Program-made: the position numbers and the translations under genes
The notes under the pieces: model-generated
What the model was told of the DNA's origin: nothing
The model's database searches: none
What the model saw: only the letters and a program-made list of their open reading frames with translations
Assembly: GCA_000830295.1 (NCBI GenBank)
Contig: CP010425.1
Coordinates: forward strand, 736,001-800,000
Length of the DNA stretch: 64,000 nucleotides
Direction: 5' to 3'
Origin: an archaeon GW2011_AR15
Lineage (GTDB): Archaea; Nanobdellota; Nanobdellia; Woesearchaeales; GW2011-AR15
Shown here: piece by piece, positions 1-39,174 of the stretch
Numbering within the stretch: the first letter of the stretch is position 1
Layout: the number at the start of each line of letters is the position of its first letter

Positions 1-1868
1 TGTTTGCTCTTAACCTGAAGGACAGGAAAGATGATGCAGCTGTCTGGATAGAAGGCCCGGATAAAGTTGTTTCAGGGGTTGAGAACACGTTCACAGCAAA
101 AGTAAATGCAGTTGGAGAGCCTGACAAAAGCCTGAAAGTCTATGTGGATGACTCTCTTGTATACAATGAGGCCTTCAGGAAAGATGTTGAGATAAAACAG
201 ACGTTCACCTCAGGAAACCATGTCATAAGGGCAGTTCTTGGCGGGGGAGATGCATTCTCCCAGAACAATATATTCTACAAGGCTGTCTCAGTATATGAAA
301 AACCAAAGATACTATTTGTATCCAACGGCGGGTCGCCCATGCTTGGCCTGCTTCAGGGATTTTATGCAGTTGATACAGCATCAGGAGTCACATCCAACCT
401 TGACAGCTATTATGCTGTTGTGCTGGACAATATCAATGGAGACCAGCTCGGGAACAGGGAAATCGAGAGGCTTGAGGACTTCCTTGATGACGGCAACGGG
501 CTTCTTGTCGTGGGAGGCAGAAATTCCTATGACTGGGGGGAGTATGATACTTCAAGGATAAATAACCTGCTGCCTGTCGGAATAGGCCAGGCAAAAAAGA
601 AGGATGACATAACAAACATAGTGATGCTGCTTGACACAGGTGCATCAGGAGAAGGGCTGCTGAAGGAAGGCATAACTTTTTTTGATGTCCAGAAATCAAT
701 ACTTGTGGATGTGCTGAACGGCATAAGCTCACTGAACAAGGTAGCTGTTTTTGAATCAAACCATTACCAGAAAACAATAACCGGGCTGTCAGAGCTTGGG
801 CCGAAGAAAGTCCAGCTTATAGAAGATATAAGCGTGCTTACAACTCACGGATTCAGCGAGCTGAGATTCTCATACCAGAAGGCACATGAAGCTTTAAAAC
901 TGAACACAGGAAGCAAGAACATTGTCATAATAACTGATGGGAAGCTTATTCCGCAGGACCAGGCGCTGACGCTGGAGCTTACAAGAGCAGCAAAGGCAGA
1001 CGGCATAAAGACCTTTATAATTGCTGTGGGAGACAGCGCAGACGAGGAATTCCTCAAGGCTGTTAAAGAGGCAGGCGGAGGAGAATATTTCAGGGCAGAC
1101 GAGACAAACAGGCTGAAACTTTATTTTGGGGAGCCTGAATCAGGTGATACAGATGACCTGGAAATATTTGTCTATGATTCCAACCATTTCATAACAGAAG
1201 AGCTGGACATGTCAAGCGATATATACGGATTCAATACAGTCTATCCAAAGCAGAACGGCAGGATGCTGCTGAGCACTTCAGCCGGCGATCCTGTGCTTAC
1301 AATATGGAATTACGGGCTTGGTAGAGTGGCAGCATGGTCGACAGACGACGGCTCAGTCTGGACGCCCGACATGCTCAACACCAAGAATTCCCAGGCGCTC
1401 ATAAGGACGCTGAACTGGCTTGTGGAGGAGCCTGGCAGGAAATCCGATCCTCTTATCGATATCCCAGAACTGAGGACAGGCGAAAATTCAGTGATAACTG
1501 TCAAATCAAGCAGGATTCCGTCCGGGTCAGGGATATCATTCTATGAATATGAAAAAGGCATCTATAAAGGAAACTATTTTCCGCAGAAAACAGGGATTGC
1601 AAGCATACTGGGAAGGAATGCTGCAGTTAATTACCAGAAAGAATACCTGAACATAGGCATGGACCCGGAGCTTGAAAGGACGCTGGCAATAACAGGAGGA
1701 AAACTGATAAATACAGATGACAAAGAAGAGGTCGCTTCACTTTCAACAGTCCAGGTAAGCAGGACCAATGACCTTTCATGGCTCTTCCTGACTATTGCAG
1801 GCCTTGTATATCTTTTTGAGGTTGCTGTAAGGAGGATAATGGAAATGAGGGCTTTGAAAAAGTTTTAA
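1..1868 (+). CDS. vWA domain / glutamine-amidotransferase-like membrane-anchored protein (5' partial, frame open to window start)
   Basis: Frame is open from nt 3. vWA-like segments (MLLDTGAS, IIITDG, IIAVG), GGRNSY and GLGRVAAW segments, C-terminal TM helix. Confidence 0.75.
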   Translation, partial: FALNLKDRKDDAAVWIEGPDKVVSGVENTFTAKVNAVGEPDKSLKVYVDDSLVYNEAFRKDVEIKQTFTSGNHVIRAVLGGGDAFSQNNIFYKAVSVYEKPKILFVSNGGSPMLGLLQGFYAVDTASGVTSNLDSYYAVVLDNINGDQLGNREIERLEDFLDDGNGLLVVGGRNSYDWGEYDTSRINNLLPVGIGQAKKKDDITNIVMLLDTGASGEGLLKEGITFFDVQKSILVDVLNGISSLNKVAVFESNHYQKTITGLSELGPKKVQLIEDISVLTTHGFSELRFSYQKAHEALKLNTGSKNIVIITDGKLIPQDQALTLELTRAAKADGIKTFIIAVGDSADEEFLKAVKEAGGGEYFRADETNRLKLYFGEPESGDTDDLEIFVYDSNHFITEELDMSSDIYGFNTVYPKQNGRMLLSTSAGDPVLTIWNYGLGRVAAWSTDDGSVWTPDMLNTKNSQALIRTLNWLVEEPGRKSDPLIDIPELRTGENSVITVKSSRIPSGSGISFYEYEKGIYKGNYFPQKTGIASILGRNAAVNYQKEYLNIGMDPELERTLAITGGKLINTDDKEEVASLSTVQVSRTNDLSWLFLTIAGLVYLFEVAVRRIMEMRALKKF

Positions 1869-1892
1869 AAACCTGTAAGATTTATAACGAAT

Positions 1893-2348
1893 ATGGCATA
1901 CATGAAAAGGGCAACAACGATTGTACTCTTTCTCCTTCTTCTGGGCACACTGGGTTTTTTTGCAGTTTCAGTTGTGAAATACCAAGGAGACCTGACCAGG
2001 CTTAATGATGATATAAGGGACAAAAGGGTGGAGATAGATGATCTTAGCGACCAGCTGAAGGAATTCAATGAAAGCAACTCCCAGCTGAATGAGCAGCTTA
2101 CAGTGCAGCAGGCAAGGGAACAGGACCTGTCAACCCAGTATCTTGATGTGAAAGGAGAGAAAGAGAGCCTGGAATCCACTAATGCCGCACTGGAGAAGGA
2201 CCTTGCAAATATCACCAGCCAATATACTGCACTCCAGATAGAATATAACGATACAACAGAAGAACTCGGGAATGTCCTTGAGGATGCTGAAGATATCTGC
2301 AATTACTCTGCCACAGCAAATATAACTGAATGCGATGATTACAGATGA
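1893..2348 (+). CDS. Membrane-anchored coiled-coil protein
   Basis: N-terminal hydrophobic helix followed by heptad-rich sequence. Confidence 0.65.
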   Translation: MAYMKRATTIVLFLLLLGTLGFFAVSVVKYQGDLTRLNDDIRDKRVEIDDLSDQLKEFNESNSQLNEQLTVQQAREQDLSTQYLDVKGEKESLESTNAALEKDLANITSQYTALQIEYNDTTEELGNVLEDAEDICNYSATANITECDDYR

Positions 2349-3112
2349 ACATAAGAAAGATGTACACAGAACTTCTTGTAACTTCTGTCACCCTTAATAT
2401 CTTTGATTCAATACTGACAACAATAACAGCATTCAGCATAATTTATTTTGTGCTTTACTTTTACAGAATCCCATATCTTGTGGCTATTGCAGCTTCTGCT
2501 GCATTTTTCCTGTGGAGCTTCATAAGGAAGATAAGGCAGAACAAGATACTTGTGCTTGAGCAGAAATATCCTGATTTCAAGGAAAGGCTGAGGACAAGCT
2601 ATGAGTACAAGACAGAGAGCAATACAGTAATAGATTCTCTCCACAGCGATATTACTGAGATGATGAAAAAAGTGGACATAAGCGCATACCTTGACTCAGG
2701 CAGGGTGGCATTCAAGGTCCTGGCTGCCTGCATACTGCTCTTTTCAACGCTTTATTTCTCCTCAGTGGGCCTGGATATACTTGACATAAAGACAAGGATA
2801 GTCACCTCAAGTGCATACGAGAGCCTTGAAGAGTTTGCAACTGGCCTGTTCACTAATGATGACCAGGAATTTGAAACTCCTGCAGCAGGAGACCCAAGAC
2901 TGATAGTGCTGGGGAACGAGGAGCTGAATGCAAACCTTGATGTCTACAACACAGGACTTGACATAAACGAGATATCTGAGGGAGAGAAAAATGATTTCGG
3001 CGGGCATTATCCGGGGGAGATTTCAGGGGATGCCCAGGAGATTTATGAGGAAGACATCCCTGAGGAAGACAAGGAAGTTGTAAGGGAGTATTTCAAGAAG
3101 ATTAACCAGTGA
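2345..3112 (+). CDS. Conserved archaeal membrane protein with acidic C-terminus (type found near vWA/MoxR genes)
   Basis: 3 TM segments, ERLRT motif, acidic tail ending VREYF; ATGA overlap with upstream gene. Confidence 0.6.
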   Translation: MNIRKMYTELLVTSVTLNIFDSILTTITAFSIIYFVLYFYRIPYLVAIAASAAFFLWSFIRKIRQNKILVLEQKYPDFKERLRTSYEYKTESNTVIDSLHSDITEMMKKVDISAYLDSGRVAFKVLAACILLFSTLYFSSVGLDILDIKTRIVTSSAYESLEEFATGLFTNDDQEFETPAAGDPRLIVLGNEELNANLDVYNTGLDINEISEGEKNDFGGHYPGEISGDAQEIYEEDIPEEDKEVVREYFKKINQ

Positions 3113-3162
3113 ATTCTGAATTTTTAAAAAAGTATATAATAAGCTGGCTGTTTCTTTGCCCT

Positions 3163-3888
3163 ATGAGCAAACTGATTGCAACAAAAGACAACTGGACATT
3201 CCTTGTTAAAGACCCTGATAAAGATGTTCATACTAATTTTGGGCTGATAAAGGCTGAGGACATAAAGAAAGCCAAAGCCGGGGAAATAGTGAAGAGCAAC
3301 AAAGGGATAGAGTTCACTGTTTTTGACGCTGATTTCATTGACTTTTATCACAGGATAAAGAGAGGGCCGCAGATAATCCCGAGAAAAGATATAGGTCTCA
3401 TAATAGCAGAGGCAGGCCTGAATAAGAATTCTGTAGTAATTGAATCAGGCTCAGGTTCAGGCGGCCTGGGATGCTTCCTTGCCAAGATCTGCAAAAAAGT
3501 GTATTCATATGAGATAAGGGAGGATTTCTATAACATTGCAAAAAAAAATGTTGAATATCTCGGCATAAAAAACCTAAGCCTGAAAAACAGGGATGCAAAA
3601 GAAGGCTTCAGCGAAAAGAATGCAGATACAGTTATCCTTGACCTTCCTGACCCATGGGAACTTATAGAGGCGGCAAAGAAATCACTTAAGCCTGGGGGAT
3701 TCCTTATCTCATACAGCCCGACAATACCTCAGGTAATGGATTTTGTAAATACCCTTGATGAGAGCTTTGCCTACCTGAAGACGTCTGAGATAATTGAGAG
3801 GGAATGGGAAGTTAAGGAGAGAAAGGTAAGGCCGAGAAGCCAGGCGATAGGCCATTCAGGTTTTATTACGTTTGCAAGAAAATTATAG
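3163..3888 (+). CDS. trmI: tRNA (adenine-57/58-N1)-methyltransferase, TrmI/GCD14 family
   Basis: KRGPQII, ESGSGSG SAM motif, LDLPDPW, GHSGFI; start moved to ATG 3163 downstream of a TATA-like tract. Confidence 0.9.
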   Translation: MSKLIATKDNWTFLVKDPDKDVHTNFGLIKAEDIKKAKAGEIVKSNKGIEFTVFDADFIDFYHRIKRGPQIIPRKDIGLIIAEAGLNKNSVVIESGSGSGGLGCFLAKICKKVYSYEIREDFYNIAKKNVEYLGIKNLSLKNRDAKEGFSEKNADTVILDLPDPWELIEAAKKSLKPGGFLISYSPTIPQVMDFVNTLDESFAYLKTSEIIEREWEVKERKVRPRSQAIGHSGFITFARKL

Positions 3889-4434
3889 GTGAAGAATTTT
3901 TCTATCCATCAGGTAAAGAGCCAGCTGGCTGGCTGCAATGGCTCCTGAGAGTAAGAAGAGATAAACGGCGAGAAGCTGCATGAATGTAAGAGGGACGTCA
4001 TTCCTCAGCGCCCCAAGGATAAGCACAGTATACCATGAGGTCATTGATATTGCTCCCGATGCAAAAGTTATTCTTTTTACAAAACTAAGCTGGTGGTCTG
4101 CGAAATCCAGCTTTACCAGCCTCGGCGTTATGTAAAGATTCAGCAAGATGCCATTCAATATTATAATCCCGACAATCACCATCTTCACAAGAAACTTGAC
4201 TGTAAAATTATATCTTACAGTGTTCTGAAGGTATATGCCAATCCCAGACAGTATCAGGATAGCAAGCCCGACCCATATCATGATAGATACAGTCTTGAGT
4301 ACCTTTGTTTCCCACCTTGAGACGTGGAAATCCTTGAGGAACCTGAAAACCATGATATCAGCCACAGTCGCTGCCCCCATACCTATGGCCAGGCCTATGA
4401 GATGAAGTATAATTAATAGCTGATACGAAATCAT
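3883..4434 (-). CDS. Integral membrane protein with conserved His in TM1
   Basis: 5 hydrophobic helices, LHLIG, FLVKM. Confidence 0.6.
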   Translation of the reverse strand: MISYQLLIILHLIGLAIGMGAATVADIMVFRFLKDFHVSRWETKVLKTVSIMIWVGLAILILSGIGIYLQNTVRYNFTVKFLVKMVIVGIIILNGILLNLYITPRLVKLDFADHQLSFVKRITFASGAISMTSWYTVLILGALRNDVPLTFMQLLAVYLFLLSGAIAASQLALYLMDRKILHL

Positions 4435-4467
4435 AGTCTGTTTATCTGGATTAACAGGTATATAAAT

Positions 4468-4842
4468 TTAGCTGTTAAAAGAAGAAATGAATAACAAGAT
4501 GTTAATCAGGTAGATACTGCTGCACACCAGACAAAAATTCTTCTGCTTCGCATACGAGACATATGCAAGATACACTGAAAACAGCAAAGCAGGTATTGAG
4601 GCATAGAATACGAACCAGGGATAGGTAAAGCTGAGAGCAATAATAGCTGTATAGTAGATACCCCCTATCACAGGATTCGGCACAAGGAACCTGTTATAAT
4701 ACCTGCTGCTGAATGCCTTTGTGCATGAGATATTCCTGCTGATGTCGCACAGCGGCCTGTATTTTTTGTCTTTGCTCCTTTCTTTTACATAAAGTGCATA
4801 CACAGAGAGCAGCAGCCCAAGCAGAGATAATTCCGGTATCAT
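4468..4842 (-). CDS. Vitamin K epoxide reductase (VKOR) family protein
   Basis: Loop pair CDISRNISC, AFSSRY, PNPVIG, CLVC redox motif in last TM. Confidence 0.85.
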   Translation of the reverse strand: MIPELSLLGLLLSVYALYVKERSKDKKYRPLCDISRNISCTKAFSSRYYNRFLVPNPVIGGIYYTAIIALSFTYPWFVFYASIPALLFSVYLAYVSYAKQKNFCLVCSSIYLINILLFISSFNS

Positions 4843-4904
4843 AGCCTGTGTATAGCTTCAGGATATAAAAAAATTATTATTCTCCCTGTTTATACTAAGG
4901 GGAT

Positions 4905-5654
4905 ATGAAGATAAGACTGCATCAGTTCCTCAGCAAGTCAGGGCTTTTCAGCAGAAGGCAGGATATGCTGGATGCAATACTGAAAGGGGAAGTGAAGATA
5001 GATAGTGAGACAGTAACAAAGCCGCACTACGGGTTTAATCCGAAAAAAAGGAAAGTGTACTATAAGGGTGAGGAAGTGAAGGAGACAGAGGAAACAATAT
5101 ACCTCATCCTGAATAAGCCGCTCGGCTACCTGTCAACAAAGCTTACAGAGAAAGATATCGAGCTTGGGAAAAAATCAGCATTTGACCTCATTACAGGGTT
5201 TGACGAAAAGGCAAAGAATTCCCTTTTTGCAGTAGGAAGGCTGGATGAGGATACTTCAGGCCTGCTTATCTTCACTAATGACGGCAGGCTGGGATACAAG
5301 ATAGCGAGCCCTAAGAGCAGCATAAAGAAGACATACCATGCTGTCCTGGAAAAAGAATTATCCGAAAAGGATATTGCTAAAATAGAGAAAGGAGTGAAAA
5401 TAAGCCTTGGGGGATTCCCTGAAAAATTTTACACGACAAAACCCTGCAAAATAGAAAAGATTTCTGGAAAAGAAGCGTATATAACCCTGACAGAAGGGAA
5501 AAAAAGGGAAGTCAGGAAAATCTTTGTGGCTATGGGTAATGCAGTTATCAGCCTGAGAAGGATTGCGATAGGAAAAATTCTGCTCAAAAAACTGGATATA
5601 AGAGACGGGGAATTCAGAATAGTTGACAGGCAGTTCATAAAAGAGAGGTTATGA
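4905..5654 (+). CDS. RsuA/RluB-family rRNA pseudouridine synthase
   Basis: S4 domain (RLHQFLSKSG), LNKPLG, GRLDEDTSGL, EGKKREVR. Confidence 0.9.
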   Translation: MKIRLHQFLSKSGLFSRRQDMLDAILKGEVKIDSETVTKPHYGFNPKKRKVYYKGEEVKETEETIYLILNKPLGYLSTKLTEKDIELGKKSAFDLITGFDEKAKNSLFAVGRLDEDTSGLLIFTNDGRLGYKIASPKSSIKKTYHAVLEKELSEKDIAKIEKGVKISLGGFPEKFYTTKPCKIEKISGKEAYITLTEGKKREVRKIFVAMGNAVISLRRIAIGKILLKKLDIRDGEFRIVDRQFIKERL

Positions 5655-26749: not shown

Positions 26750-26960
26750 AGCAACTAAAAAACAAACTTCATTAATTAAGCTTTGCGATGTTTCTTATTC
26801 CTTTTTTGCAGAAAGAGCAGCAGGGTATCATAGGAAACAGGGACATTCCTCGTTAAGAGTGGCTGTAAGAATCATAAAAATAAAAAAAATGAAAAAAATA
26901 TTTTATTCCTATGCTCCTGCACTACCTTATTAACTTTATCTGTAAGTGAATTAAAAGAAG

Positions 26961-27051
26961 TGGGCCCGAGCGGATTCTCACCAATCCTTACCAGCATTGA
27001 TGGGGCTAGTGTGTTTCCTCGCTTTGCTCGTCAAGCACACGTTATATAAAA
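26961..27051 (-). repeat. tRNA-Ile 3' trailer module with 16-bp copy of the tRNA 3' end
   Basis: tgggcccgagcggatt at 26961 and 27052; hairpins GTGTG..GAGCAAAGCGA..CACAC and CATCAAT-G-CT-GGTA-AG-G-ATTGGTG. Confidence 0.85.
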
Positions 27052-27175
27052 TGGGCCCGAGCGGATTTGAACCGCCGACCACTCGATTGCTGACTGATAT
27101 GCTATCAGTCGAGCGCTCCATTATCCCATCGCCCAGGTACAACCCAGGCGAGTGACCAGACTAAGCCACGGGCCC
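27052..27175 (-). tRNA. tRNA-Ile(GAT) with two introns: D-loop (~27121-27155) and canonical 37/38 (27088-27102)
   Basis: Removing both inserts gives GGGCCCGTGGCTTAGTCTGGTGGAGCGCTCGACTGATAATCGAGTGGTCGGCGGTTCAAATCCGCTCGGGCCCA; all stems pair. Confidence 0.9.
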
Positions 27176-27241
27176 GATGGTTCTCAGAATTTGAACTGCA
27201 TTTAAAAAAATTGCGATAAATATAAGAGATAGCGCATTATT

Positions 27242-27661
27242 TTGGAGATTATGGATCTATCAGAACTGACACTGATTCTGCAGGTATCAATAGTGCCGGT
27301 CGCCCTTATCTCGGGAATAGGGCTTATCATCCTTTCCATGACAAACAGGCTCGGGAGAATCATGGACAGGATAAGAGCGCTGATCGGCAACAAGAAAAAG
27401 AGGCAGCAGGCGGATATGCTTTACAGGAGGGCAAAAATAATGCAGCGCGCTGTGATACTGGGAAGCATCAGCATATTATTTGTTGCAGTTCTCATAATAA
27501 TGAATTTTCTGTTTCTTATCCTAAGTGTGAACAGCGCAGTTATGACCATACTAGTATTCTCGCTTATTCTGGCCCTTCTTATAGTGTCCCTGTTTCTCTT
27601 TATCTAAGACTTGACTTTATCATTAAAAGCAATAGAGTTAGAAATAAAAGACAGTTTATGA
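27242..27661 (+). pseudogene. DUF2721-like membrane protein with in-frame TAA at 27605
   Basis: LSMTNRLGRIMDRIR; frame continues DLTLSLKAIELEIKDSL after the stop. Confidence 0.6.
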
Positions 27662-27669
27662 AGTAAAGA

Positions 27670-27772
27670 AAAAGTGGGACTTCATTGATTCTCATCAAGC
27701 CTTTAAGAAAAGCCTTGAGGGAAACAAATCCGGTTCTGTTAACAAGTTAACAGAACGACAAAATTAAAAAAG
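27670..27772 (-). repeat. tRNA-Phe 3' trailer module with degenerate (13/16) copy of the tRNA 3' end
   Basis: tgggacttcattgatt (27675) vs tgggacctcagggatt (27773); hairpin TCAAG-G-CTTT-TCTT-AAAG-G-CTTGA; 11-bp inverted repeat 27733-27756. Confidence 0.75.
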
Positions 27773-27882
27773 TGGGACCTCAGGGATTTGAACCCTGGAC
27801 ACCACGGTTACTAAATTCTCACCAGTTACAGACTGGTGGTGGTGCTTCAGCCGTGTGCTCTCCCAGGCTGAGCTAAGGTCCC
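27773..27882 (-). tRNA. tRNA-Phe(GAA) with 36-nt intron at 37/38 (27809-27844)
   Basis: CACGG-CTGAAG|intron|A-CCGTG anticodon arm; TTCAAAT T-loop; GGGACCT/AGGTCCC acceptor. Confidence 0.92.
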
Positions 27883-27930
27883 GCCAATGCCCTGAAATTA
27901 AGCACGATTTAAATTGTTTTCTATAAGCAG

Positions 27931-28854
27931 CTACAATCTGTACTCGACAGGCAGATGGAAGAAGCCGGAAGGTGATTTGTAATTGTCAAGCGGAAATTTT
28001 TTCAGGCCATGCTTCACAGCCGCTATATCTGGAATTGCAAAAGATATGGGCCTGCCGTAGTCGGCATTTTCAACTCCGCTATCTTTTTTATAGTGGGCTA
28101 TCCAGTACAATTTTTTCCCTTCGTTATTGAGGGTTAGTCTGAACAAATGAAGTTTTTCTCCTTCTTTATCTAAGACAGTGTATTTTCTATCTCCTGAAAA
28201 AGCCACTTCAGCGATGAGGTTCCAGAAAAAAATAAGCCCCCCATTCATTCGGTCTATATCAGGATTCCTTTTTCCTTTCAGCCAATTGAACATTGGGCTT
28301 ATCTTATCACTTGCCTGAACAAAGCCATAGACAGGCCCGAAATCACCTATAAGCAGGCCTTCAAGATGGTCCAGCTCATGATGGGCGTATCTTGCCTGGT
28401 CTTTGCTGCTGATAGATATCTCCTCTTCAATCCCTTTTTCAAGAACATACCCTGACAATACCATGCTTTTTGGCCTTGCTACAGGCATATAAGGCTCCCC
28501 AAGAGAGCCGCAGCCCTCAAGAAAGTCTGCTTTCTCATATTCCTCTTTAGAGATTATCTCCGGGTTTACTACCGTAATAAACCTATTTTTTGCAGAATAA
28601 TCAGGATTAGGTATCTGCATCATCCTTAGAGGCCGTTCAGTTTCTTTCCAGTAGATATTCTGTGAGGCTACAGCGTTCCACTTCTTTTTTGTTCTGAATT
28701 CTGTCATGAGTTTTGCAAGCTTCTTTACAAGCCCCATCTCAGTATTGGTATCAACGTGCATTGCAGGAGTCCTGACCCATTTCGCATATTCTATGCTCTT
28801 ATACACGTCGCAGACATCCGCTCCTGTTTTTAGCGCAAGCATTGATTTGAACAT
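27931..28854 (-). CDS. Peptide-deformylase-fold protein with long C-terminal extension
   Basis: VVNPEI, EGCGSL, HHELDHLEG; motif 1 degenerate. Confidence 0.7.
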   Translation of the reverse strand: MFKSMLALKTGADVCDVYKSIEYAKWVRTPAMHVDTNTEMGLVKKLAKLMTEFRTKKKWNAVASQNIYWKETERPLRMMQIPNPDYSAKNRFITVVNPEIISKEEYEKADFLEGCGSLGEPYMPVARPKSMVLSGYVLEKGIEEEISISSKDQARYAHHELDHLEGLLIGDFGPVYGFVQASDKISPMFNWLKGKRNPDIDRMNGGLIFFWNLIAEVAFSGDRKYTVLDKEGEKLHLFRLTLNNEGKKLYWIAHYKKDSGVENADYGRPISFAIPDIAAVKHGLKKFPLDNYKSPSGFFHLPVEYRL

Positions 28855-28896
28855 CAGGAGAAGAACTATGAGGCTAAATTTAAAACTATCAGAAAA

Positions 28897-29223
28897 TCAG
28901 TTTGGCAAAGCAATAAGAGTCTCAAGAGGAACATAGAATCTTGATACTCTGTGTTCGCCGGTGTCATTAATCCCGACAAGAACATATCTCTGGTTATTTT
29001 CCTCAAGAAGTATCGGGGATTTCCCGTCATTCGACATTACTCCAACCTTTACAATTCCGTCTCTTACTTTATCGTCAAGAGGCATATCTTTTGGGGATAC
29101 ATCAGTCCGATTTACATAAATTCCCGTTATTCCGTCCTTTGTATGAAAAGTCACAAAATACTCATGGCTGAACATTCCCGGACCGTATTCCGTGTAGATA
29201 TAATGGTTTACTTCATCACCCAT
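28897..29223 (-). CDS. Hypothetical protein
   Basis: 108-aa ORF with TATA-like tract upstream. Confidence 0.55.
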   Translation of the reverse strand: MGDEVNHYIYTEYGPGMFSHEYFVTFHTKDGITGIYVNRTDVSPKDMPLDDKVRDGIVKVGVMSNDGKSPILLEENNQRYVLVGINDTGEHRVSRFYVPLETLIALPN

Positions 29224-29286
29224 GCAGTGTCCAAAGGAAATGTTATATTTAAATCTTCATAGTTTCCAAAATAATGTTTAGAAAAT

Positions 29287-29399
29287 AAGCCTCCGAAGAT
29301 ATCCTCACTTGCGTTCGGAAACCTTTCGGAGTCTTTAAATTAAGCCTCCGAAGGGTTAAGTCACTTTCGTTCCTGAACCCACGTAGCCTTAATAAATTA
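29287..29399 (-). repeat. Two tandem tRNA-Thr minihelix-like trailer modules
   Basis: aagcctccgaag at 29287, 29342 and 29399; 20-bp identity 29336-29355 vs 29393-29412; caps GAACGAAAGTGA and GAACGCAAGTGA. Confidence 0.85.
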
Positions 29400-29500
29400 A
29401 GCCTCCGAAGGGAATTGAACCCTCGACCTGCGGATTGCTCCCAACCTTTTCTTAAAAGGCTGTTACAAGTCCGCCGCAATAGCCGCTATGCTACGGAGGC
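29400..29500 (-). tRNA. tRNA-Thr(TGT) with 28-nt intron at 37/38 (29436-29463)
   Basis: GCGGA-CTTGTA|intron|A-TCCGC; GCCTCCG/CGGAGGC acceptor. Confidence 0.92.
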
Positions 29501-29555
29501 ATTTTTGCCAAAGTAGCTTTCGAAAATCCTTGATTTTCGATGTGCTACGGAGGCA
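29501..29555 (-). repeat. tRNA-Thr 5' leader module with 13-bp copy of the tRNA 5' end
   Basis: tgctacggaggca at 29489 and 29543; hairpin TCGAAAATC-AAG-GATTTTCGA. Confidence 0.85.
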
Positions 29556-29600
29556 CGTATATTCAGGATTAAAAAGCCATTTAAATAAGTTTTTAATATT

Positions 29601-30272
29601 TCAGAACCACTGCTTCTCTTCAGACATCCTTTTCCTTGCTTCTGAAACCCTGTTCAGCTCTAGATAAAACTTGAGGTCTTCTACAAATCTTTCAGCTCTC
29701 CTCCTCAGCTCTATCTCCTGTTCCCTGAACCTGTCCTTATAGATCATTCTCAGGAAATACTCATGCAGCACTTTCCCGAGTGCAAATTTTGAATTGTCGT
29801 TGAACCAGCCGTTTATGTCAATCTCAAGTATTGAGTTGAACCACATCAGGAATTCCCCTACATACGGCTTTATCTTTTTTCCCTTGTACATTATCTCTAC
29901 ACGTTTCATATTAGTCGTTAGGACGTCAATATCCCACCTGTACCTGAAAAAGGGGTGCTCTCCTGCTATTCCGCCATGGTTATTTCTCAGGCGCCACCAC
30001 CACCTTATCTCCTTGTGGCCCTGCTGGTCCCTGTATTCTCCATAGAAATCCTCTATCCACTTCCGGTCGCCGACACTGTGTATTGACGTCCATCCTTCCT
30101 CTGTAAGCCAGTGGTGCATAAATCGGTATATATTCTCAAGATGGACTATCCTGACTTGTTTTATCTGTGTGCTGTATACAAGAAGGTTGCCTTCTGTCCA
30201 GGAGGTGTCTTCAGGAGGGGGTGCCCACTGGGTCCTTACTCCGCCGGGATGCTTAGGGGTCCAAATAGTCAT
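29601..30272 (-). CDS. Hypothetical protein (Trp-rich)
   Basis: 223-aa ORF, TATA upstream, no recognised motif. Confidence 0.65.
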   Translation of the reverse strand: MTIWTPKHPGGVRTQWAPPPEDTSWTEGNLLVYSTQIKQVRIVHLENIYRFMHHWLTEEGWTSIHSVGDRKWIEDFYGEYRDQQGHKEIRWWWRLRNNHGGIAGEHPFFRYRWDIDVLTTNMKRVEIMYKGKKIKPYVGEFLMWFNSILEIDINGWFNDNSKFALGKVLHEYFLRMIYKDRFREQEIELRRRAERFVEDLKFYLELNRVSEARKRMSEEKQWF

Positions 30273-30390
30273 GCTATATCTAACAGGGAATGTGCTATAT
30301 AAAAGTTTCGGAAAAATGTATACTAGTTTAGATAATAGCTTATACTAGAAAACTCATTAATTTATATTCCAATGCCAATTCACTCTCCGC

Positions 30391-31134
30391 ATGGTAAACT
30401 TCTGGAAGCTCGTGAATAAGGTAATAAAAGAGGCTGATATACTCCTTCTTGTATTGGATTCCAGGATGCCGGAGCTCACAAGGAACAGGGAGCTGGAACA
30501 GAAGATCGGCAGCAAGAAGCTTATCTATGTACTTAACAAATGCGACCTTATCCCTAAGGATGAGATGGAGGAGGTAGCCAGGAAATACAGTCCATCAGTC
30601 TTTGTCTCAAGCAGGGAAAAGCTAGGAGGGACGCTGCTGTTCAGGAAGATTATGGAATTGTCAAGAGGAGAGCCATGCATCGTGGGAGTTATAGGCTACC
30701 CAAATGTCGGCAAAAGCTCAGTCATCAACCTGCTGAAAGGCAAAAAATCAGCTTCCATCAGCCCACAGTCAGGGCATACAAGAGGCATACAGTTTATCTC
30801 TGCAAAAGGCAAGATAAAATTAATAGATACCCCGGGGGTATTGGAATTCAGCGAAAAGGAAATTATGAAGCAGATAATGATAGGCTCAAAGAACCCGCAG
30901 CATGTCAAAGAGCCGGATTACTATGCGGCAAAGCTTATTGAGCAGTTCCCGAAAATGTTTGAAAAGCATTGCGGGCTTGAATATGCAGGGGACCCCTATG
31001 ATTTCCTGGAGAAATTTGCCCTGAAAAGCAATACGCTTGTCAAGGGCGGAAACCCGGATATGAACAGGATTGGCCGCATGCTTTTGCAGGACTGGCAGAA
31101 AGGCAAAGTGCACGAGAAGTTTCTGGAAAACTAA
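30391..31134 (+). CDS. Circularly permuted GTPase, YlqF/RbgA family
   Basis: NKCD before GYPNVGKS, GHTRG, DTPG. Confidence 0.92.
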   Translation: MVNFWKLVNKVIKEADILLLVLDSRMPELTRNRELEQKIGSKKLIYVLNKCDLIPKDEMEEVARKYSPSVFVSSREKLGGTLLFRKIMELSRGEPCIVGVIGYPNVGKSSVINLLKGKKSASISPQSGHTRGIQFISAKGKIKLIDTPGVLEFSEKEIMKQIMIGSKNPQHVKEPDYYAAKLIEQFPKMFEKHCGLEYAGDPYDFLEKFALKSNTLVKGGNPDMNRIGRMLLQDWQKGKVHEKFLEN

Positions 31135-31247
31135 TAGATTAAAAGGGTAAGCAACACCAAAAAACCAGTTGTTTTTCTATTAAAACAGCTGGAAAACCAA
31201 ATAATTTATATGATGGATTTACTTCCTACCTCTTATAAGGAGTAAAT

Positions 31248-31847
31248 ATGGCTGAAGCAATTAACCCAGAAACAAAAACAAATCTGCATCTAAATGTTAA
31301 AGATCCTGTTTCAGAAGGGAAAGTAACGCTTACCAAAAATGAGCAAAAAGTGCTAAAGCAGATAATTATTAAGGAAAAGCTATCAGACACTACTATAGCA
31401 GGCAGTATGAAGCTTTCCCAGCAGGCAGTTAACCAGATTAGGTCAAAGCTGGAAAACTTAGGCGTGATTAAAGGGTATTCTCCGATAATAGATTTTGAAA
31501 AAATAGGCATTACTGTTATCATTTTAATAGGTATCAGGCTTACACATAAAGTTTGGGAGAATAAGAAAGAATGGGAAATTGAACAAAACCTAAAGAAAAT
31601 CCCTTTTATCTTTGAAGCTTATAGGATAGCCGGCCAGGATATCTCCCATGTACTATGCATGGGATTTAAAGATGACATTCAAAAAGATAAATTCATAAAA
31701 AAACTTCAGACTATATATGAAGATCAGCTGAACCTTAAGTGGAGTTATTCTTTTTCTGCTAAAGATATAATACTACAGGATCAACTTGGGCTGTTGTATC
31801 AAATTATTGATAAAAAAGATTTTGAATTCGAAAAATTATTCTTGTAG
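31248..31847 (+). CDS. Lrp/AsnC-family transcriptional regulator
   Basis: HTH (SQQAV..KLENLGVIKGY..IDFEKIG) plus RAM-like domain. Confidence 0.85.
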   Translation: MAEAINPETKTNLHLNVKDPVSEGKVTLTKNEQKVLKQIIIKEKLSDTTIAGSMKLSQQAVNQIRSKLENLGVIKGYSPIIDFEKIGITVIILIGIRLTHKVWENKKEWEIEQNLKKIPFIFEAYRIAGQDISHVLCMGFKDDIQKDKFIKKLQTIYEDQLNLKWSYSFSAKDIILQDQLGLLYQIIDKKDFEFEKLFL

Positions 31848-31933
31848 GTTCAATGTGTTTTAGTTCACAATTTTTAATGCTGTAAATCTTGTAGACTACT
31901 AGCGATTATTTATGAATTCATGGCTTCTTATAA

Positions 31934-32152
31934 ATGAATATGGTGAATCATAAAAACCCAATAACGACCTGTTGGTGTTGCAAAAAGAGCTTTGACGGCA
32001 ACTTTGAGATAAAAAATCTACAAATAGTTTGTCCTTATTGTAAAAAACCACAATCGTCTGTCTTCGAAAAAAAATCTCAGGCTGAAATTATAAGAAAATC
32101 TAAAGTCACACTAAAAAAGTTTAAAACAGCATTCAAAAATTCACAGCCATAA
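31934..32152 (+). CDS. Small zinc-ribbon protein
   Basis: CWCC..CPYC. Confidence 0.55.
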   Translation: MNMVNHKNPITTCWCCKKSFDGNFEIKNLQIVCPYCKKPQSSVFEKKSQAEIIRKSKVTLKKFKTAFKNSQP

Positions 32153-32171
32153 AAAAAGCGGGGCAGAGAAA

Positions 32172-32321
32172 ATGTTATATGTTGATAATAAAGGGAAATT
32201 CTTTTCAGAAGAAGAAACTGCAGCACTCTCATCCTGGGAGATTGAGCTGAGGGGAATCCATGCATATGAAGAGAATCTGGAAAAACGACTCTTCAATCAC
32301 ATGGATGATATGATTATCTAA
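32172..32321 (+). CDS. Small hypothetical protein, 49 aa (not in ORF track)
   Basis: MLYVDNKGKFFSEEETAALSSWEIELRGIHAYEENLEKRLFNHMDDMII. Confidence 0.45.
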   Translation: MLYVDNKGKFFSEEETAALSSWEIELRGIHAYEENLEKRLFNHMDDMII

Positions 32322-32494
32322 TTGGCAGTTTCAGAAATTAGAGATTGTGTCAGTCCAATATAAATATTAAAAATTTTTCTTAATAGTGTGTATCTGCGTA
32401 TACTACAAGGTTTCTTTGCAAGAGTATGTTAGTTCACTAGAACCTCTTTATATAGCTATAATCATTAATCTAGTATACAATAAAGAACCATGAG

Positions 32495-33148
32495 GTGGTT
32501 TTAATGGGAAAAAAATATGAATACCATAAACAAAATGACTATCCTGGAGAAAGGGTAGCAGAGCAAAAAAGAATCTCTGATAGAGAAGATATTACAAATA
32601 AGCGATCTAATACAAAGTCACTTATTATTGTAGGGCTATTAGTAATTCTAATTGCTGGAGTTACTTGGGGTTATATGGCTTCGTCACAAGAATCTGATGA
32701 GCTAAACTCAAATGATGAGGTGCTTTTTACAGCAGACACCATGAGGCCAGGCATAGTTAAAGTTTCACCAGCAAACAACGAGTTGAATGTCGAAACGCAA
32801 GACGCAGTGACAGTACGATTCAGCGAACAGATGGATGCGAGTACTATCAATAAATATACTTTCACCGTAGTGCAGAGGACAACTCCAGAAAATGGGCCAA
32901 CTTCGCCAGATTATCGATCAAGGCAAATTGAGGGTATAGTTACGTATAATGACTTAGGTCTTATCGCAACCTTTACACCAAAAGAGAAGTTTACACCAAA
33001 CCAAGAATACGGGAACGTGTTTACTGTATCGATAACAACAGCAGTAAAGGATCTTGCAGGCAATTCGCTTTCGCAGGATTATGTGTGGAGCTTTACTACA
33101 GGTAGCAACCCGTTTAATACCGGCACTACAACTTCACAAACAGCTTAA
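32495..33148 (+). CDS. Membrane-anchored Ig-like (Big_5/SbsA-type) domain protein
   Basis: TM; VSPANN, VRFSEQMD, ATFTP, VKDLAGN, WSFTT. Confidence 0.8.
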   Translation: MVLMGKKYEYHKQNDYPGERVAEQKRISDREDITNKRSNTKSLIIVGLLVILIAGVTWGYMASSQESDELNSNDEVLFTADTMRPGIVKVSPANNELNVETQDAVTVRFSEQMDASTINKYTFTVVQRTTPENGPTSPDYRSRQIEGIVTYNDLGLIATFTPKEKFTPNQEYGNVFTVSITTAVKDLAGNSLSQDYVWSFTTGSNPFNTGTTTSQTA

Positions 33149-33386
33149 TTTTTTTTTATTTTTTTAATCAAACCTAAAAATCATGAGTACACTGTTTTCT
33201 GAAATATTTCATATTGTTTCACCGATATTAAATATATCTAAAATGCTACCCTGCATTTACGACTATCGGGGTGAGGAAAATGAGAAGAATAATCCTGCAT
33301 TGCAGGCAATTTGGGACATTTTCTTTGAAATAATCCCTTCTATATCAATAACATCTATAAATTAAATGCTTTTCCGATTGTCTAAA

Positions 33387-33447
33387 GGGACATTGGTTAA
33401 ACTTGGTTACGTTCACGGAAACCAAGTTTCCGAGAACCCGAAAAAGC
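33387..33447 (+). repeat. tRNA-Pro 5' leader hairpin module
   Basis: 10-bp inverted repeat AAACTTGGTT/AACCAAGTTT (33399-33429), preceded by a weak 5'-end-like GGGACATTGGT located 26 nt after TATAAA. Confidence 0.5.
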
Positions 33448-33521
33448 GGGGTTGTGGTCTAGCTTGGTATGATTCGCGGTTCGGGACCGCGAGGTCGGGG
33501 GTTCGAATCCTCCCAACCCCA
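33448..33521 (+). tRNA. tRNA-Pro(CGG)
   Basis: Full cloverleaf, CGCGG-TTCGGGA-CCGCG. Confidence 0.95.
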
Positions 33522-33603
33522 CTTTCAGGTACGCTTGAGCAAAGCGAAACGTACCTTCTCCGTCAATGCTGAAAAGGATTGGTGCGTAATCCTCCCAACC
33601 CCA
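33522..33603 (+). repeat. tRNA-Pro 3' trailer module with 16-bp copy of the tRNA 3' end
   Basis: AATCCTCCCAACCCCA at 33506 and 33588; AGGTAC..GAGCAAAGCGA..GTACCT; CGTCAAT-G-CT-GAAA-AG-G-ATTGGTG. Confidence 0.88.
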
Positions 33604-33610
33604 TTTTTTC

Positions 33611-33664
33611 GAGGTATTCAAGGTTCGGGACCTTGAGGTCTGGGTTCGAATCCCAGGAACCCCA
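33611..33664 (+). pseudogene. D-armless / 5'-truncated tRNA-Pro(CGG)-like sequence
   Basis: CAAGG-TTCGGGA-CCTTG, CTGGG-TTCGAAT-CCCAG, GAACCCCA; no D arm. Confidence 0.8.
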
Positions 33665-33668
33665 CATC

Positions 33669-33741
33669 GGGCTCGTAGCTCATCGGCCAGAGCGTTCCCC
33701 TCGCACGGGAAAGGCAGCGAGTTCAATTCTCGCCGGGTCCA
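33669..33741 (+). tRNA. tRNA-Ala(CGC)
   Basis: TTCCC-CTCGCAC-GGGAA; G3:U70 pair. Confidence 0.95.
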
Positions 33742-33787
33742 TCCTAGATTTTCCTAAAATTATAGTTATTAAATACACAGAATAAAG

Positions 33788-33896
33788 AGCGAGGGGGGGG
33801 ACTCGAACCCCCGATGATCGGGATCTACATGTCATAGCGTTAGCTCATCATCCCGGATGTTGCAGCCGATTGCCTTAGCCGCTTGGCGACCCCCGC
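33788..33896 (-). tRNA. tRNA-Cys(GCA) with 37-nt intron at 37/38 (33823-33859)
   Basis: ATCGG-CTGCAA|intron|C-CCGAT; CTGC/GTAG central helix; U73. Confidence 0.9.
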
Positions 33897-33941
33897 GATT
33901 CTAGTTACCGTGAAAACAGAGTTGTTTATAAAAGTTTTTGA

Positions 33942-34862
33942 ATGCAGAGAGAAATACTTAAATATGCGCGTAATACACTTCAGCCGATGTTTGAGACGTT
34001 TTCAAGGAGTTGGGAGATAACCAAGCAGACATTCAGGGTTATTAATGCAGACAGGGAGATACTGCTCTATCCAGTTGTATCGTCAATAATCTCTATAATC
34101 TTCTTCGTGGTGATGGTTTTTCCATTTATAGCTACAGGCCTTGTCTCAGAAATTCTGTCAAGAGACGCAGGTGCCTTTCTGTTCTGGGTAACATTGTTCG
34201 GATTTTACCTGGGAGTTTCATTTGTGGCAACATTCTTCAATGTGGCAACAGTATACTGCGCAAACAAGAGGTTCCACAAAGGAAACCCAACATTCACAGA
34301 AGGGCTCAAAGAGGCATTTAAGAGGATACACCTGATTTTTCTCTGGTCGCTTGTCTCAGCTACTGTAGGGATACTGATAAACAGCCTTGAGAATTCAGCA
34401 AAAAAATCAAAAGGAATTAGCAGGGTAATAATTTCAGCAGTTGCCAGCCTTGTTGGCATGGCGTGGAGCATAGTAACGCTGTTTGTCATACCTGCCATTG
34501 TTATAGAAAATGTAGGCCCTGTTGACGCAATAAAAAGATCGGCCCAGACACTGAAAAAGACATGGGGAGAAAGCCTTATAAGACATTTTGGGCTCGGAGC
34601 TGCTCAGGGTATGTTCTCATTTGCAGGCTTTTTCTTCTTGTTGGCACCTGCAATAGTAAGCCTTGTATTTTTTCAGAGCATCCTTATGTTTGCCGTCCTG
34701 ATGGCACTCTTCATTATCTATATAGTCATAGTAAGCCTGGTGTTCTCAACAGCAAACACAGTCTTCAACACAGCCCTTTTTGTCTATGCCAAGACAGGCA
34801 AGATTCCCGGATTCTATTCCAAAGATACAATGAAGCACGCTTTCAAGGCAGAGAAGAAATAG
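33942..34862 (+). CDS. Conserved multi-TM membrane protein (DUF6159-like)
   Basis: SRSWEI, AWSIVTLFVIP, AIKRS..KKTWGE; true start may be MFETF. Confidence 0.75.
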   Translation: MQREILKYARNTLQPMFETFSRSWEITKQTFRVINADREILLYPVVSSIISIIFFVVMVFPFIATGLVSEILSRDAGAFLFWVTLFGFYLGVSFVATFFNVATVYCANKRFHKGNPTFTEGLKEAFKRIHLIFLWSLVSATVGILINSLENSAKKSKGISRVIISAVASLVGMAWSIVTLFVIPAIVIENVGPVDAIKRSAQTLKKTWGESLIRHFGLGAAQGMFSFAGFFFLLAPAIVSLVFFQSILMFAVLMALFIIYIVIVSLVFSTANTVFNTALFVYAKTGKIPGFYSKDTMKHAFKAEKK

Positions 34863-34873
34863 TAAGAAAAAAA

Positions 34874-34933
34874 ATGAGCCTGCGAGGAGAACTCACTTGC
34901 GTTCGTGCTCCTCTGGTCTCATTCGCTTCGCTT
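34874..34933 (-). repeat. tRNA-Arg minihelix-like 3' trailer module
   Basis: atgagcctgcgagga at 34874 and 34934; CGAACGCAAGTGAG cap identical to the Thr module; AAGCGAAGCGAA next to the tRNA. Confidence 0.88.
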
Positions 34934-34934
34934 A

Positions 34935-35008
34935 TGAGCCTGCGAGGATTTGAACCCCGGTATTCAGCTTAGAAGGCTGATGTCCTATCCAGGCTGGACG
35001 ACAGGCTC
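34935..35008 (-). tRNA. tRNA-Arg(TCT)
   Basis: TCAGC-CTTCTAA-GCTGA; full cloverleaf. Confidence 0.95.
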
Positions 35009-38443: not shown

Positions 38444-38984
38444 GACAATAGTTAAGGACCATATAAGGGTGCCTCCAAGCCTTTTCGGGGAACCATTGGA
38501 AAAAGCACTGCTTAAGCAGATCAAAGAGAATTATGACGGCTTCATATCGAAAGACATGGGCATTGTAATTGATGTTGCTTCAATAGAGGATGTCAAAGAA
38601 GGAAAGATAGTCCCTGGAGACGGGGCTGCTTTCTACGAGACAACATTCAGCCTGCTTGCATTCAAGCCTGAGCTTCAGGAAGTGTTTCCCGGCCAGATAA
38701 AGGACATGGCTGATTTCGGGGCATTCATTAACCTTGGACCTATAGAAGGCATGATCCACATTTCACAGACCATGGATGATTTTGTGTCATTCAGCAAAGA
38801 CAAGGCCCTTCTTGGAAAAGAAAGCAAGAAGAACCTTAAAGTAGGGGATAAGTGCAGGGCAAGGATTATCGCAATAAGCTACAAAGACATAACAAACCCC
38901 AAGTTCGGGCTTACAATGAGGCAGAAAGGCCTGGGAAGGCTTGACTGGATACCTGAAGACCTGAACCCAAAACCAAAGAAGTAA
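38433..38984 (+). CDS. rpoE1: RNA polymerase subunit Rpo7 (E')
   Basis: VPPSLFG, PGDGA, S1 domain FGAF..HISQ, GLTMRQ. Confidence 0.95.
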   Translation: MFYKTIVKDHIRVPPSLFGEPLEKALLKQIKENYDGFISKDMGIVIDVASIEDVKEGKIVPGDGAAFYETTFSLLAFKPELQEVFPGQIKDMADFGAFINLGPIEGMIHISQTMDDFVSFSKDKALLGKESKKNLKVGDKCRARIIAISYKDITNPKFGLTMRQKGLGRLDWIPEDLNPKPKK

Positions 38985-38985
38985 G

Positions 38986-39174
38986 ATGGCAAAAGAAAAA
39001 GTATGCAAGAACTGCAAGGTATTTGTAGAAGGCGTTACATGCCCGCAGTGCAAGGGCAACCAGTTTACGACAATATACCAGGGAAAGCTGAATATTCTTG
39101 ATTCAAACAAATCCTTTATAGCAAAGCAGATAGGGATAGCACAAAAAGGAAGATACGCTATTAAAGTAAGGTGA
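38986..39174 (+). CDS. spt4: Transcription elongation factor Spt4
   Basis: CKNC..CPQC, GRYAIKVR. Confidence 0.93.
   Translation: MAKEKVCKNCKVFVEGVTCPQCKGNQFTTIYQGKLNILDSNKSFIAKQIGIAQKGRYAIKVR

Follow-up and report, generated by a model that had tools for sequence, protein, structure and literature searches.

Short two-hairpin modules between duplicated gene ends in the archaeon GW2011_AR15: a probable family of non-autonomous insertions

We analysed a stretch of 64,000 nucleotides (nt) from the genome of the archaeon GW2011_AR15 (contig CP010425.1, forward strand, positions 736,001 to 800,000; hereafter the window, in which a coordinate equals the genome coordinate minus 736000), where short modules follow tRNA genes and end in a second copy of the tRNA 3' end. 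ARAGORN called three tRNA genes in the window and Rfam seven, four of the seven bearing introns. Five of these seven genes are followed by a module of 37–76 nt that ends with a copy of the preceding tRNA's 3' end; the tRNA-Ala(CGC) and tRNA-Cys genes have none, so the count of five in seven that a first-pass annotation had derived from the letters alone is right. The repeat scan also recovered every period and position listed by that annotation: a period of 91 for the Ile-like tRNA (26961/27052; exact copy of 16 nt), 98 for the Phe-like tRNA (exact over 12 nt, or over 22 nt with 3 mismatches), 82 for tRNA-Pro (16 nt), 60 for tRNA-Arg(TCT) (15 nt), and 57 and 55 for two successive copies behind tRNA-Thr. 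Numbered along the tRNA, the first nucleotide of the copy is nt 58 for Ile, Phe and Pro, nt 60 for Arg and nt 61 for Thr, as had been proposed. The 5' end of tRNA-Thr (its first 12 nt) is duplicated as well, with a copy 54 nt upstream. The parts of the modules that are not derived from tRNA recur behind unrelated tRNAs, again as annotated: GAGCAAAGCGA occurs three times in the genome (Ile module, Pro module and one other module) and GAACGCAAGTGA exactly twice (Thr and Arg modules), always inside modules.

The duplication of gene ends extends through the whole genome, which is a single contig of 1,157,790 bp (97% complete). In a set of 40 tRNA loci (39 ARAGORN calls plus the Ile-like gene), 20 are followed, 41–102 nt downstream, by an exact duplicate (9 nt or longer) of the gene's own 3' end, with a length of at least 11 nt in 18 of them, and a scoring-based version of the search returned 18 of the 40. 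When the 3'-end queries were compared with the upstream flanks as a control, there were only 2 matches, both of them T-loops of neighbouring tRNAs. Exact direct repeats of 12 nt or more, spaced 30–130 apart, number 86 in the genome, compared to 7–10 in three block shuffles; together with the few upstream matches, this excess indicates a pattern beyond chance. Contigs from three other samples and studies span tRNA, module and copy with 0 differences, so that an assembly artefact is excluded. It should be kept in mind that many tRNA genes of this genome have long or multiple introns (for example window 27052-27175) and that ARAGORN missed or mislabelled several of them (a 'Stop' tRNA, Ser on non-Ser genes), which makes the isotype labels in its tables unreliable.

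Iterated nhmmer searches converged on 26 copies of one type of module, class A (about 55–115 nt), plus other types; they replaced an initial regular expression that was too strict (1 site). The class-A consensus consists of an AT/T-rich arm, a hairpin H1, CTGTTTCC, a hairpin H2 (NTCAANGCTTT..AAAGGNTTGG) and then the repeat. In the Ile module, for example, the AT-rich arm is followed by H1 (GTGTG CTTGA..GAAA CACAC), a linker and H2 (CCATCAATGCT..AGGATTGGTG), and the H2 stem (..CAATGCT/AGGATTG..) is the G.G hairpin of the first-pass annotation. H1 comes in at least three interchangeable types, and the H2 loop may host extra hairpins. Types i and ii have the T-rich arm (A-rich on the other strand) and type iii does not. 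Type ii is common to the elements that follow the Val, Phe, Arg(CCT) and Pro(GGG) tRNAs, and subfamilies are partly near-identical, the H1 of the Phe element closely matching those behind tRNA-Val and tRNA-Arg(CCT) elsewhere in the genome. In the shorter class B, found behind Arg, Glu and Thr tRNAs, H1 and H2 give way to an imperfect, inverted version of the repeat and a GAACG(A/C)AAGTGA loop. Each of the two Thr modules has this arrangement; the tRNA-Arg(TCT) module has the arm AAGCGAAGCGAA, its own imperfect inverted copy and the loop CACGAACGCAAGTGAGTT, and a homologous module stands behind tRNA-Arg(GCG) elsewhere in the genome. Compensatory changes were observed at 5 of the 7 base pairs of H1 (15 copies), and the strand reading from H1 to H2 folds more stably than its complement in 20 of the 26 class-A elements, by a mean of 2.3 kcal/mol (calculated on untrimmed elements). 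The features of the window and two further sets of genome coordinates are collected in Table 1.

Table 1. Coordinates of tRNA genes, modules and orphan copies in the window, and of features elsewhere in the genome where so marked
Feature	Position	Strand	Basis and remarks
Ile-like tRNA, two introns	27052..27175	-	Rfam RF00005, 47.8 bits; nt 58-73 (27052-27067) form the inner repeat R1
Class-A element behind Ile-like tRNA	26977..27051	-	nhmmer match at genome 762962-763051; fold; alignment
Outer orphan copy R2 of Ile-like tRNA nt 58-73, 16 nt, exact	26961..26976	-	repeat scan
Phe-like tRNA with intron	27773..27882	-	Rfam; inner repeat 27767-27788 (nt 58-79)
Class-A element behind Phe-like tRNA	27691..27766	-	H1 type ii (tcGTTCTGTTAAC ttg TTAACAGAAC) and H2
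Outer Phe 3'-end copy, partly decayed, 22 nt	27669..27690	-	3 mismatches: T-stem strand and one acceptor base
tRNA-Thr(TGT)	29400..29500	-	28-nt intron is an H2-like hairpin
Two successive class-B modules and orphan copies behind tRNA-Thr	29286..29392	-	copies 29336-29355 (20 nt) and 29286-29298 (13 nt)
Module upstream of tRNA-Thr, hairpin TCGAAAAT..ATTTTCGA	29502..29555	-	orphan copy 29543-29555 of nt -1 to 12; inner copy 29489-29501
tRNA-Pro(CGG)	33448..33521	+	inner repeat 33506-33521
Class-A element behind tRNA-Pro	33522..33587	+	H1 type i (GTACG CTTGA GCAAAGC GAAA CGTAC) and H2
Outer orphan copy of tRNA-Pro nt 58-73, then T6	33588..33603	+	repeat scan
5'-truncated fragment like a second tRNA-Pro(CGG), from the anticodon arm to the 3' end	33613..33663	+	weak tRNA/mascRNA-like matches; directly before tRNA-Ala(CGC)
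tRNA-Arg(TCT)	34935..35008	-	inner repeat 34934-34948
Class-B module and orphan copy behind tRNA-Arg(TCT)	34874..34933	-	module from 34889 to 34933; orphan copy 34874-34888, then T8
Kink-turn-like intron loci	genome 618352-618478, 869719-869844, 580535-580665, 769787-769896 (= window 33787-33896), 1111523-1111659		
XerA/integron-integrase-like recombinase	genome 1153837-1154793 (L039 1417-2376)	-	about equal scores to both models, below both curated cut-offs

No described RNA family accounts for the modules. Between window positions 26900 and 35100 only tRNA reached the Rfam gathering score and no family matched a module; matches below threshold (snoR27, SNORA66, mascRNA-like and others) lay on tRNA genes, on the Pro-like fragment or on other flanks. 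A box C/D small RNA was rejected as no C/D boxes are visible in the modules, and a hammerhead-like reading of CUUGA..GAAA was set aside on stem topology, by reasoning only. Small RNAs that overlap gene ends and a small-RNA element resembling MITEs (miniature transposable elements with inverted repeats) have been reported in Pyrobaculum, and that article describes no end duplications (PMC6009581). Elsewhere in the genome, positions 600-5500 (L124) contain the dispersed short repeats TCCGTTCGCTTCGCTCAC and CGCATAACATGAATTA and A/T-tract hairpins similar to those nested in some elements, with no Rfam match. The Pro-like fragment of Table 1 stands outside the element family and shows decay and replacement of a tRNA gene in the same neighbourhood: it shares 87% identity with the tandem Pro(CGG)-Ala(CGC) pair that is intact in a genome from another genus (G007), and the active tRNA-Pro(CGG) gene is 92% like tRNA-Pro genes of other families (ARAGORN label GGG), a similarity that suggests gene replacement.

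The elements are placed with respect to genes in a regular way. Among the 26 class-A copies, 14 lie behind a tRNA gene in sense, 2 before a tRNA gene in antisense, 4 at protein-gene starts (cpn60, hsp70/dnaK, Nop10 and an unnamed open reading frame, ORF), 4 at protein-gene ends (a class II aminoacyl-tRNA synthetase, PTH2, a histone-fold-like ORF and an unnamed ORF) and 1 in a tRNA intron, with 1 unassigned. The intact gene is always on the side of H1 and the AT-rich arm and the outer copy is the orphan, the elements being in sense behind genes and in antisense in front of them; no replication-strand bias of orientation was evident from the coordinates by eye. A flanking direct repeat is clear in 20 of the 26 copies and weak or decayed in 3. 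Repeat lengths range from 11 to 56 nt, and in all there are about 45 distinct targets, ORF starts among them, with 40–130 bp between the copies. The 3' repeats of tRNA genes start in the T-loop at nt 57–62 in 16 of 18 cases, irrespective of the loop sequence (AATCC or GTCCC), and end either at nt 72–74 (9 of 18) or at nt 77–84 (9 of 18), the latter group reaching 4–11 nt into the T-rich trailer that follows the discriminator. Repeats on the 5' side run from nt -1 or +1 to nt 9–21, in the D-arm (Thr, Pro(GGG) and Asn here, Pro(CGG) in G007). One border of such a repeat thus falls within a hairpin loop of the tRNA gene, and the opposite one coincides with the gene end or lies immediately beyond it. 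The two chaperone genes with an element at the start lie at genome positions 28551-30608 and 32948-34846; they code for a Cpn60/TCP-1-family chaperonin, which has a small upstream ORF and an N-terminus that looks GroEL-like, and for Hsp70/DnaK.

Several sites preserve what appear to be the traces of individual insertion events. At the dnaK start a type iii element lies within an exact duplication of 39 nt, and the corresponding site is a plain intergenic region in all four congeners with a dnaK match. In a Woesearchaeota metagenome-assembled genome (MAG; locus L037, also present on metagenome contigs L126 and L130) an ORF contains a 16-nt repeat, of which the inner copy enters the element, which adds two codons and a stop (..VK*), and the outer copy keeps the original ending (..AR*). 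PTH2 of GW2011_AR15 has the same pattern, the element supplying a new C-terminus and stop. One gene start carries two different nested elements with repeats of 21 and 37 nt, as independent insertions. In a congener (G005), the tRNA-Lys(CTT) gene (L027/L051; contig C7, about 38712-38990) is followed by at least three tandem units of 62 nt, each a short module plus a 17–20 nt copy of the 3' end. Longer versions with an ORF between the duplicated ends, which the first-pass annotation had thought worth looking for, did not turn up among 103 direct repeats (15 nt or longer; spacing 150–6000 bp), most of which are paralogous genes. Identity between the flanks at the junctions was 3.2–3.4 of 8 positions compared to 2.1 by chance, an excess due to a small number of repeats that extend beyond a mismatch, and microhomology of the kind invoked in a template-switch model is therefore not demonstrated.

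One class-A element makes up a tRNA intron. In antisense orientation, a complete element fills the entire anticodon-loop intron (80 nt) of tRNA-Gly(CCC), with no repeat flanking it, and the orthologous gene in another genus (G007) has the same intron (77 nt) with a compensatory change in H2. Judging from the match to the tRNA model, this intron is predicted to be removed to yield a mature tRNA. Its presence in two genera suggests that an element can persist for a long time, and the compensatory changes in H1 and in the H2 of this intron indicate that the structure is constrained. A bulge-helix-bulge (BHB) motif could not be drawn by inspection at the repeat-element-repeat junctions of Ile, Pro and Arg; no dedicated BHB search was made. 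Five tRNA anticodon-loop introns (Table 1) contain a hairpin GTGATGAGCC-NNNN-GGCGATGA that resembles a kink-turn or box C/D motif; the strict form of this pattern is confined to introns (2 exact matches), and the hairpin may serve as a guide RNA carried in the intron or as a site for L7Ae.

We looked for an enzyme that could insert the elements. Matches to the reverse transcriptase family RVT_1 (PF00078) were absent from the GW2011_AR15 genome and from all 6 genomes of its genus, and present in 4 of 31 relatives searched, none of them in the genus. Cas1 and TnpB (Cas12f1-like_TNB) were likewise absent from the genome, each was found in 0 of 6 genomes of the genus, and Y1_Tnp and DDE_Tnp_1 gave no match in the genome (other transposase families were not searched for). 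The earlier statement that no integrase, reverse transcriptase or HUH gene is present in the window thus extends to the genome for these five families, with one reservation, namely that a single recombinase is encoded outside the window: a tyrosine recombinase of 319 amino acids, XerA/integron-integrase-like, beside aIF2-alpha (Table 1). About 1.1 kb separates its gene from the element at the start of Nop10. Although negative for reverse transcriptase, Cas1 and TnpB, two of the genus's six genomes are rich in elements that have long, exact repeats.

The family is not confined to this genome. In three relatives, tRNA genes likewise have their 3' end duplicated: a congener at 13 of 30 loci, a member of a different genus within the family at 2 of 21, and a genome from a different family within the order at 3 of 20. 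The upstream control gave 0 matches in these relatives, and occupancy varies between orthologous tRNAs. A degenerate H2 pattern matched 8 loci in 4 species-representative MAGs, 5 of the 8 with a flanking repeat; two of these MAGs are titled Candidatus Woesearchaeota archaeon and two are third-party assemblies labelled Methanosarcinales. The pattern was also present in 18 metagenome contigs, with a repeat in 10 of 15 that could be evaluated (several contigs duplicate one another), and in 0 viral contigs. Sequencing runs that match the window are groundwater and soil metagenomes, with no RNA run among them, and the locus occurs in roughly 11 studies. Judged by its occurrence in these sequences, the family is best described as lineage-wide in Woesearchaeota-type DPANN archaea.

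Taken together, these observations make it probable, in our judgement with moderate confidence, that the modules are copies of a modular, non-autonomous, non-coding family of two-hairpin insertions (about 40–130 bp) with long and variable target duplications in Woesearchaeota-type DPANN archaea. The duplication appears to be made separately at each site, which fits an insertion activity acting in trans better than integrase scars. The first-pass annotation had envisaged one such activity at many tRNA genes; the single dispersed family and the per-site duplication bear this out, and its restriction to tRNA genes falls, as 8 of the 26 class-A copies are at protein-gene starts or stops and one is in a tRNA intron. 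The duplication would be produced during insertion by the filling of staggered breaks, so that the gene end is regenerated, and the T-rich arm of the element would provide a new terminator; only insertions that are close to a gene end and correctly oriented would then survive. Likewise, if the T-run of the arm terminates transcription, the element would be tolerated only when it faces the 3' end of a gene or points away from a start. Our best guess for the inserting agent is a structure-directed nuclease or recombinase, of the host or novel, that may act on hairpin-forming DNA at heavily transcribed genes. In a wider form of this proposal, which we put forward tentatively and regard as doubtful, the elements would be the footprints of an undescribed DPANN insertion pathway without a known transposase, integrase, Cas1 or reverse transcriptase, one that recognises hairpin DNA or the ends of heavily transcribed units (the T-loop or D-arm of tRNAs, start and stop regions), copies a cassette and duplicates the gene end, with the cassettes seeding BHB introns such as that of tRNA-Gly(CCC).

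A number of observations weigh against a family of insertions. No inserting enzyme was found in the genome among the five families named above, three class-A copies have no repeat, and no terminal inverted repeats are seen in the 26-copy alignment (by eye, without a formal scan), in which the left side is the AT/T-rich arm and the right side ends in ..AAAGGNTTG(G). The dnaK site is empty in the four congeners, and no clean empty allele was present in the contigs aligned to the window, where the joints seen had short sides and are likely the tRNAs of other organisms. Where the repeats lie in coding sequence, 12 of 14 differences between the two copies are silent, stop-to-stop changes included (by eye, with frames checked for four genes); such a bias is unexpected for a neutral orphan copy and would imply either recombination with element-free alleles or selection on, or use of, the outer copy. 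Finally, the class-B modules and many elements of G005 hold an inverted, tRNA-specific copy of the T-arm/acceptor strand, for which a plain staggered cut is an insufficient explanation.

Some of these points would be expected if the modules were functional RNAs, that is, co-transcribed trailers or leaders in which the outer copy pairs with the 5' strand of the tRNA or mimics an acceptor minihelix, selected for processing, quality control or regulation. Such RNAs would account for the covarying stems, for the better fold of the H1-to-H2 strand, for the silent differences and for outer copies that are mostly exact; moreover, the inverted segment of class B and the outer copy both match the acceptor strand of their own tRNA (at both tRNA-Arg genes), and a T-run follows the outer copy as at a transcript end. 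We nevertheless consider them unlikely, and the co-transcribed tRNA mimics that the first-pass annotation offered as its alternative have no direct support: a T-rich tract usually stands between the tRNA and the module, elements also occur in antisense before genes with the copy antisense to the start region, and the module is missing at orthologous tRNAs and dnaK sites of congeners. In addition, the outer copies of tRNA-Phe and two other tRNAs have lost T-stem complementarity. Retroposition in the manner of a short interspersed nuclear element (SINE), with an A-tailed element RNA copied into a nick at a T-run, or a polymerase that jumps RNA ends, and with copying that stops near the modified A57/58, seems to us quite unlikely. 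It needs a reverse transcriptase, and RVT_1 is missing from the genome and the six of the genus; type iii elements have no T-rich arm, the outer copies have no CCA, and of the two strands it is the complement of the proposed RNA that folds more stably. It would explain the variable duplication length, the start of the tRNA repeats at nt 57–62, the T-rich heteropolymeric arm of H1 types i and ii that faces the gene-proximal copy, and the highly expressed targets (tRNAs, cpn60, dnaK, Nop10).

The tRNA-Gly(CCC) intron in two genera, being an antisense class-A element over its whole 77–80 nt, and the H2-like hairpin that forms the intron of tRNA-Thr bring to mind archaeal counterparts of introners, in which the element plus one copy of the repeat would be excised by the splicing endonuclease and ligase and the insertion would be silent in RNA; the bias towards silent differences is expected if the outer copy is the one in use. 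The Gly intron, however, has no flanking direct repeat, the outer copy of tRNA-Phe cannot form a T-stem, and the inspected junctions offered no BHB, so that we hold this to be very unlikely. Least of all do we expect that the repeats are attL/attR scars left by tyrosine integrases at tRNA T-loops after the cargo was deleted. About 45 sites would all need a cargo shrunk to 40–130 bp of one and the same hairpin family, protein-gene starts are among the targets, repeat length varies, nested and tandem copies exist, and no ORF-carrying version is present among the direct repeats at 150–6000 bp, and these facts outweigh the block of identity from T-loop to 3' end (the classical T-loop sublocation), the presence of the one XerA/integron-integrase-like recombinase, and silent differences that are compatible with an imported gene end.

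The insertion family favoured here has consequences on several levels. In a complete DPANN genome, a structured insert and a second copy of the 3' end accompany half of all tRNA genes, and annotation pipelines and tRNA or intron finders will misread such inserts. Mobility of the elements without a known enzyme would point to a new insertion mechanism in streamlined archaeal genomes. The tRNA-Gly(CCC) intron as a family member connects mobile hairpin cassettes with the long debate on how archaeal tRNA introns arose and spread, and if cassettes do seed BHB introns, they would be a concrete source of intron gain. The orphan copies of gene ends are dated fossils of alleles and should be useful for the study of recombination in uncultivated populations.

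A full-text literature search (supplements lay outside it) returned no published description of these elements, and we compared them with known systems. Of the published systems considered, the closest analogues are the integration of casposons beside tRNA-Pro and the MITE-like small-RNA elements of Pyrobaculum. Similar to MITEs, repetitive extragenic palindromic sequences and bacterial interspersed mosaic elements (REP/BIME) and Correia-type elements, they are short, non-coding, multi-copy, hairpin-forming and intergenic, fall into subfamilies and affect their neighbours according to orientation. Unlike MITEs, they have no visible terminal inverted repeats, no cognate transposase of the tested families and a duplication of 11–56 bp that reaches into the gene, rather than a short fixed one. 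At the attachment sites of tyrosine integrases, the 3' part of a tRNA gene from the T-loop onwards is repeated beyond the insert and the tRNA stays intact. Our elements are like these in that the T-loop-to-end part is repeated on the far side of the insert, and unlike them in the lack of cargo and of an adjacent integrase, in dozens of targets that include protein-gene starts, and in having the same 60–100 bp hairpin family between the copies. We know of no duplication of gene termini by the hairpin elements of organelles, which also belong to a different domain of life. What those hairpin and double-hairpin elements have in common with ours is that small hairpin families invade compact genomes without an encoded transposase (PMC2800124). 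Eukaryotic SINEs and introners share variable target duplications, structured bodies, non-autonomous spread and, with one element here, residence as an intron (for introners, PMC11782384); unlike for those, the genus yielded no reverse transcriptase, the elements reside in an archaeon whose splicing is of the BHB type, and the repeat-flanked copies are at most putative introns. Integration by casposon and CRISPR-type Cas1 at the 3' end of tRNA-Pro involves a target that includes the T-psi-C segment and yields a duplication of ~15 bp by staggered attack on the two strands (PMC5137440). The casposon differs in its fixed duplication of 15 bp, a tRNA overlap of 5 bp, a multi-kb size, inverted repeats and a cas1 gene (PMC5137440); our elements differ from it in a variable length, an interval that lies inside the tRNA from T-loop to end, and the lack of any Cas1 found in the genus. 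The likeness lies in archaeal insertion beside the 3' end of a tRNA gene with involvement of the T-psi-C segment (PMC5137440).

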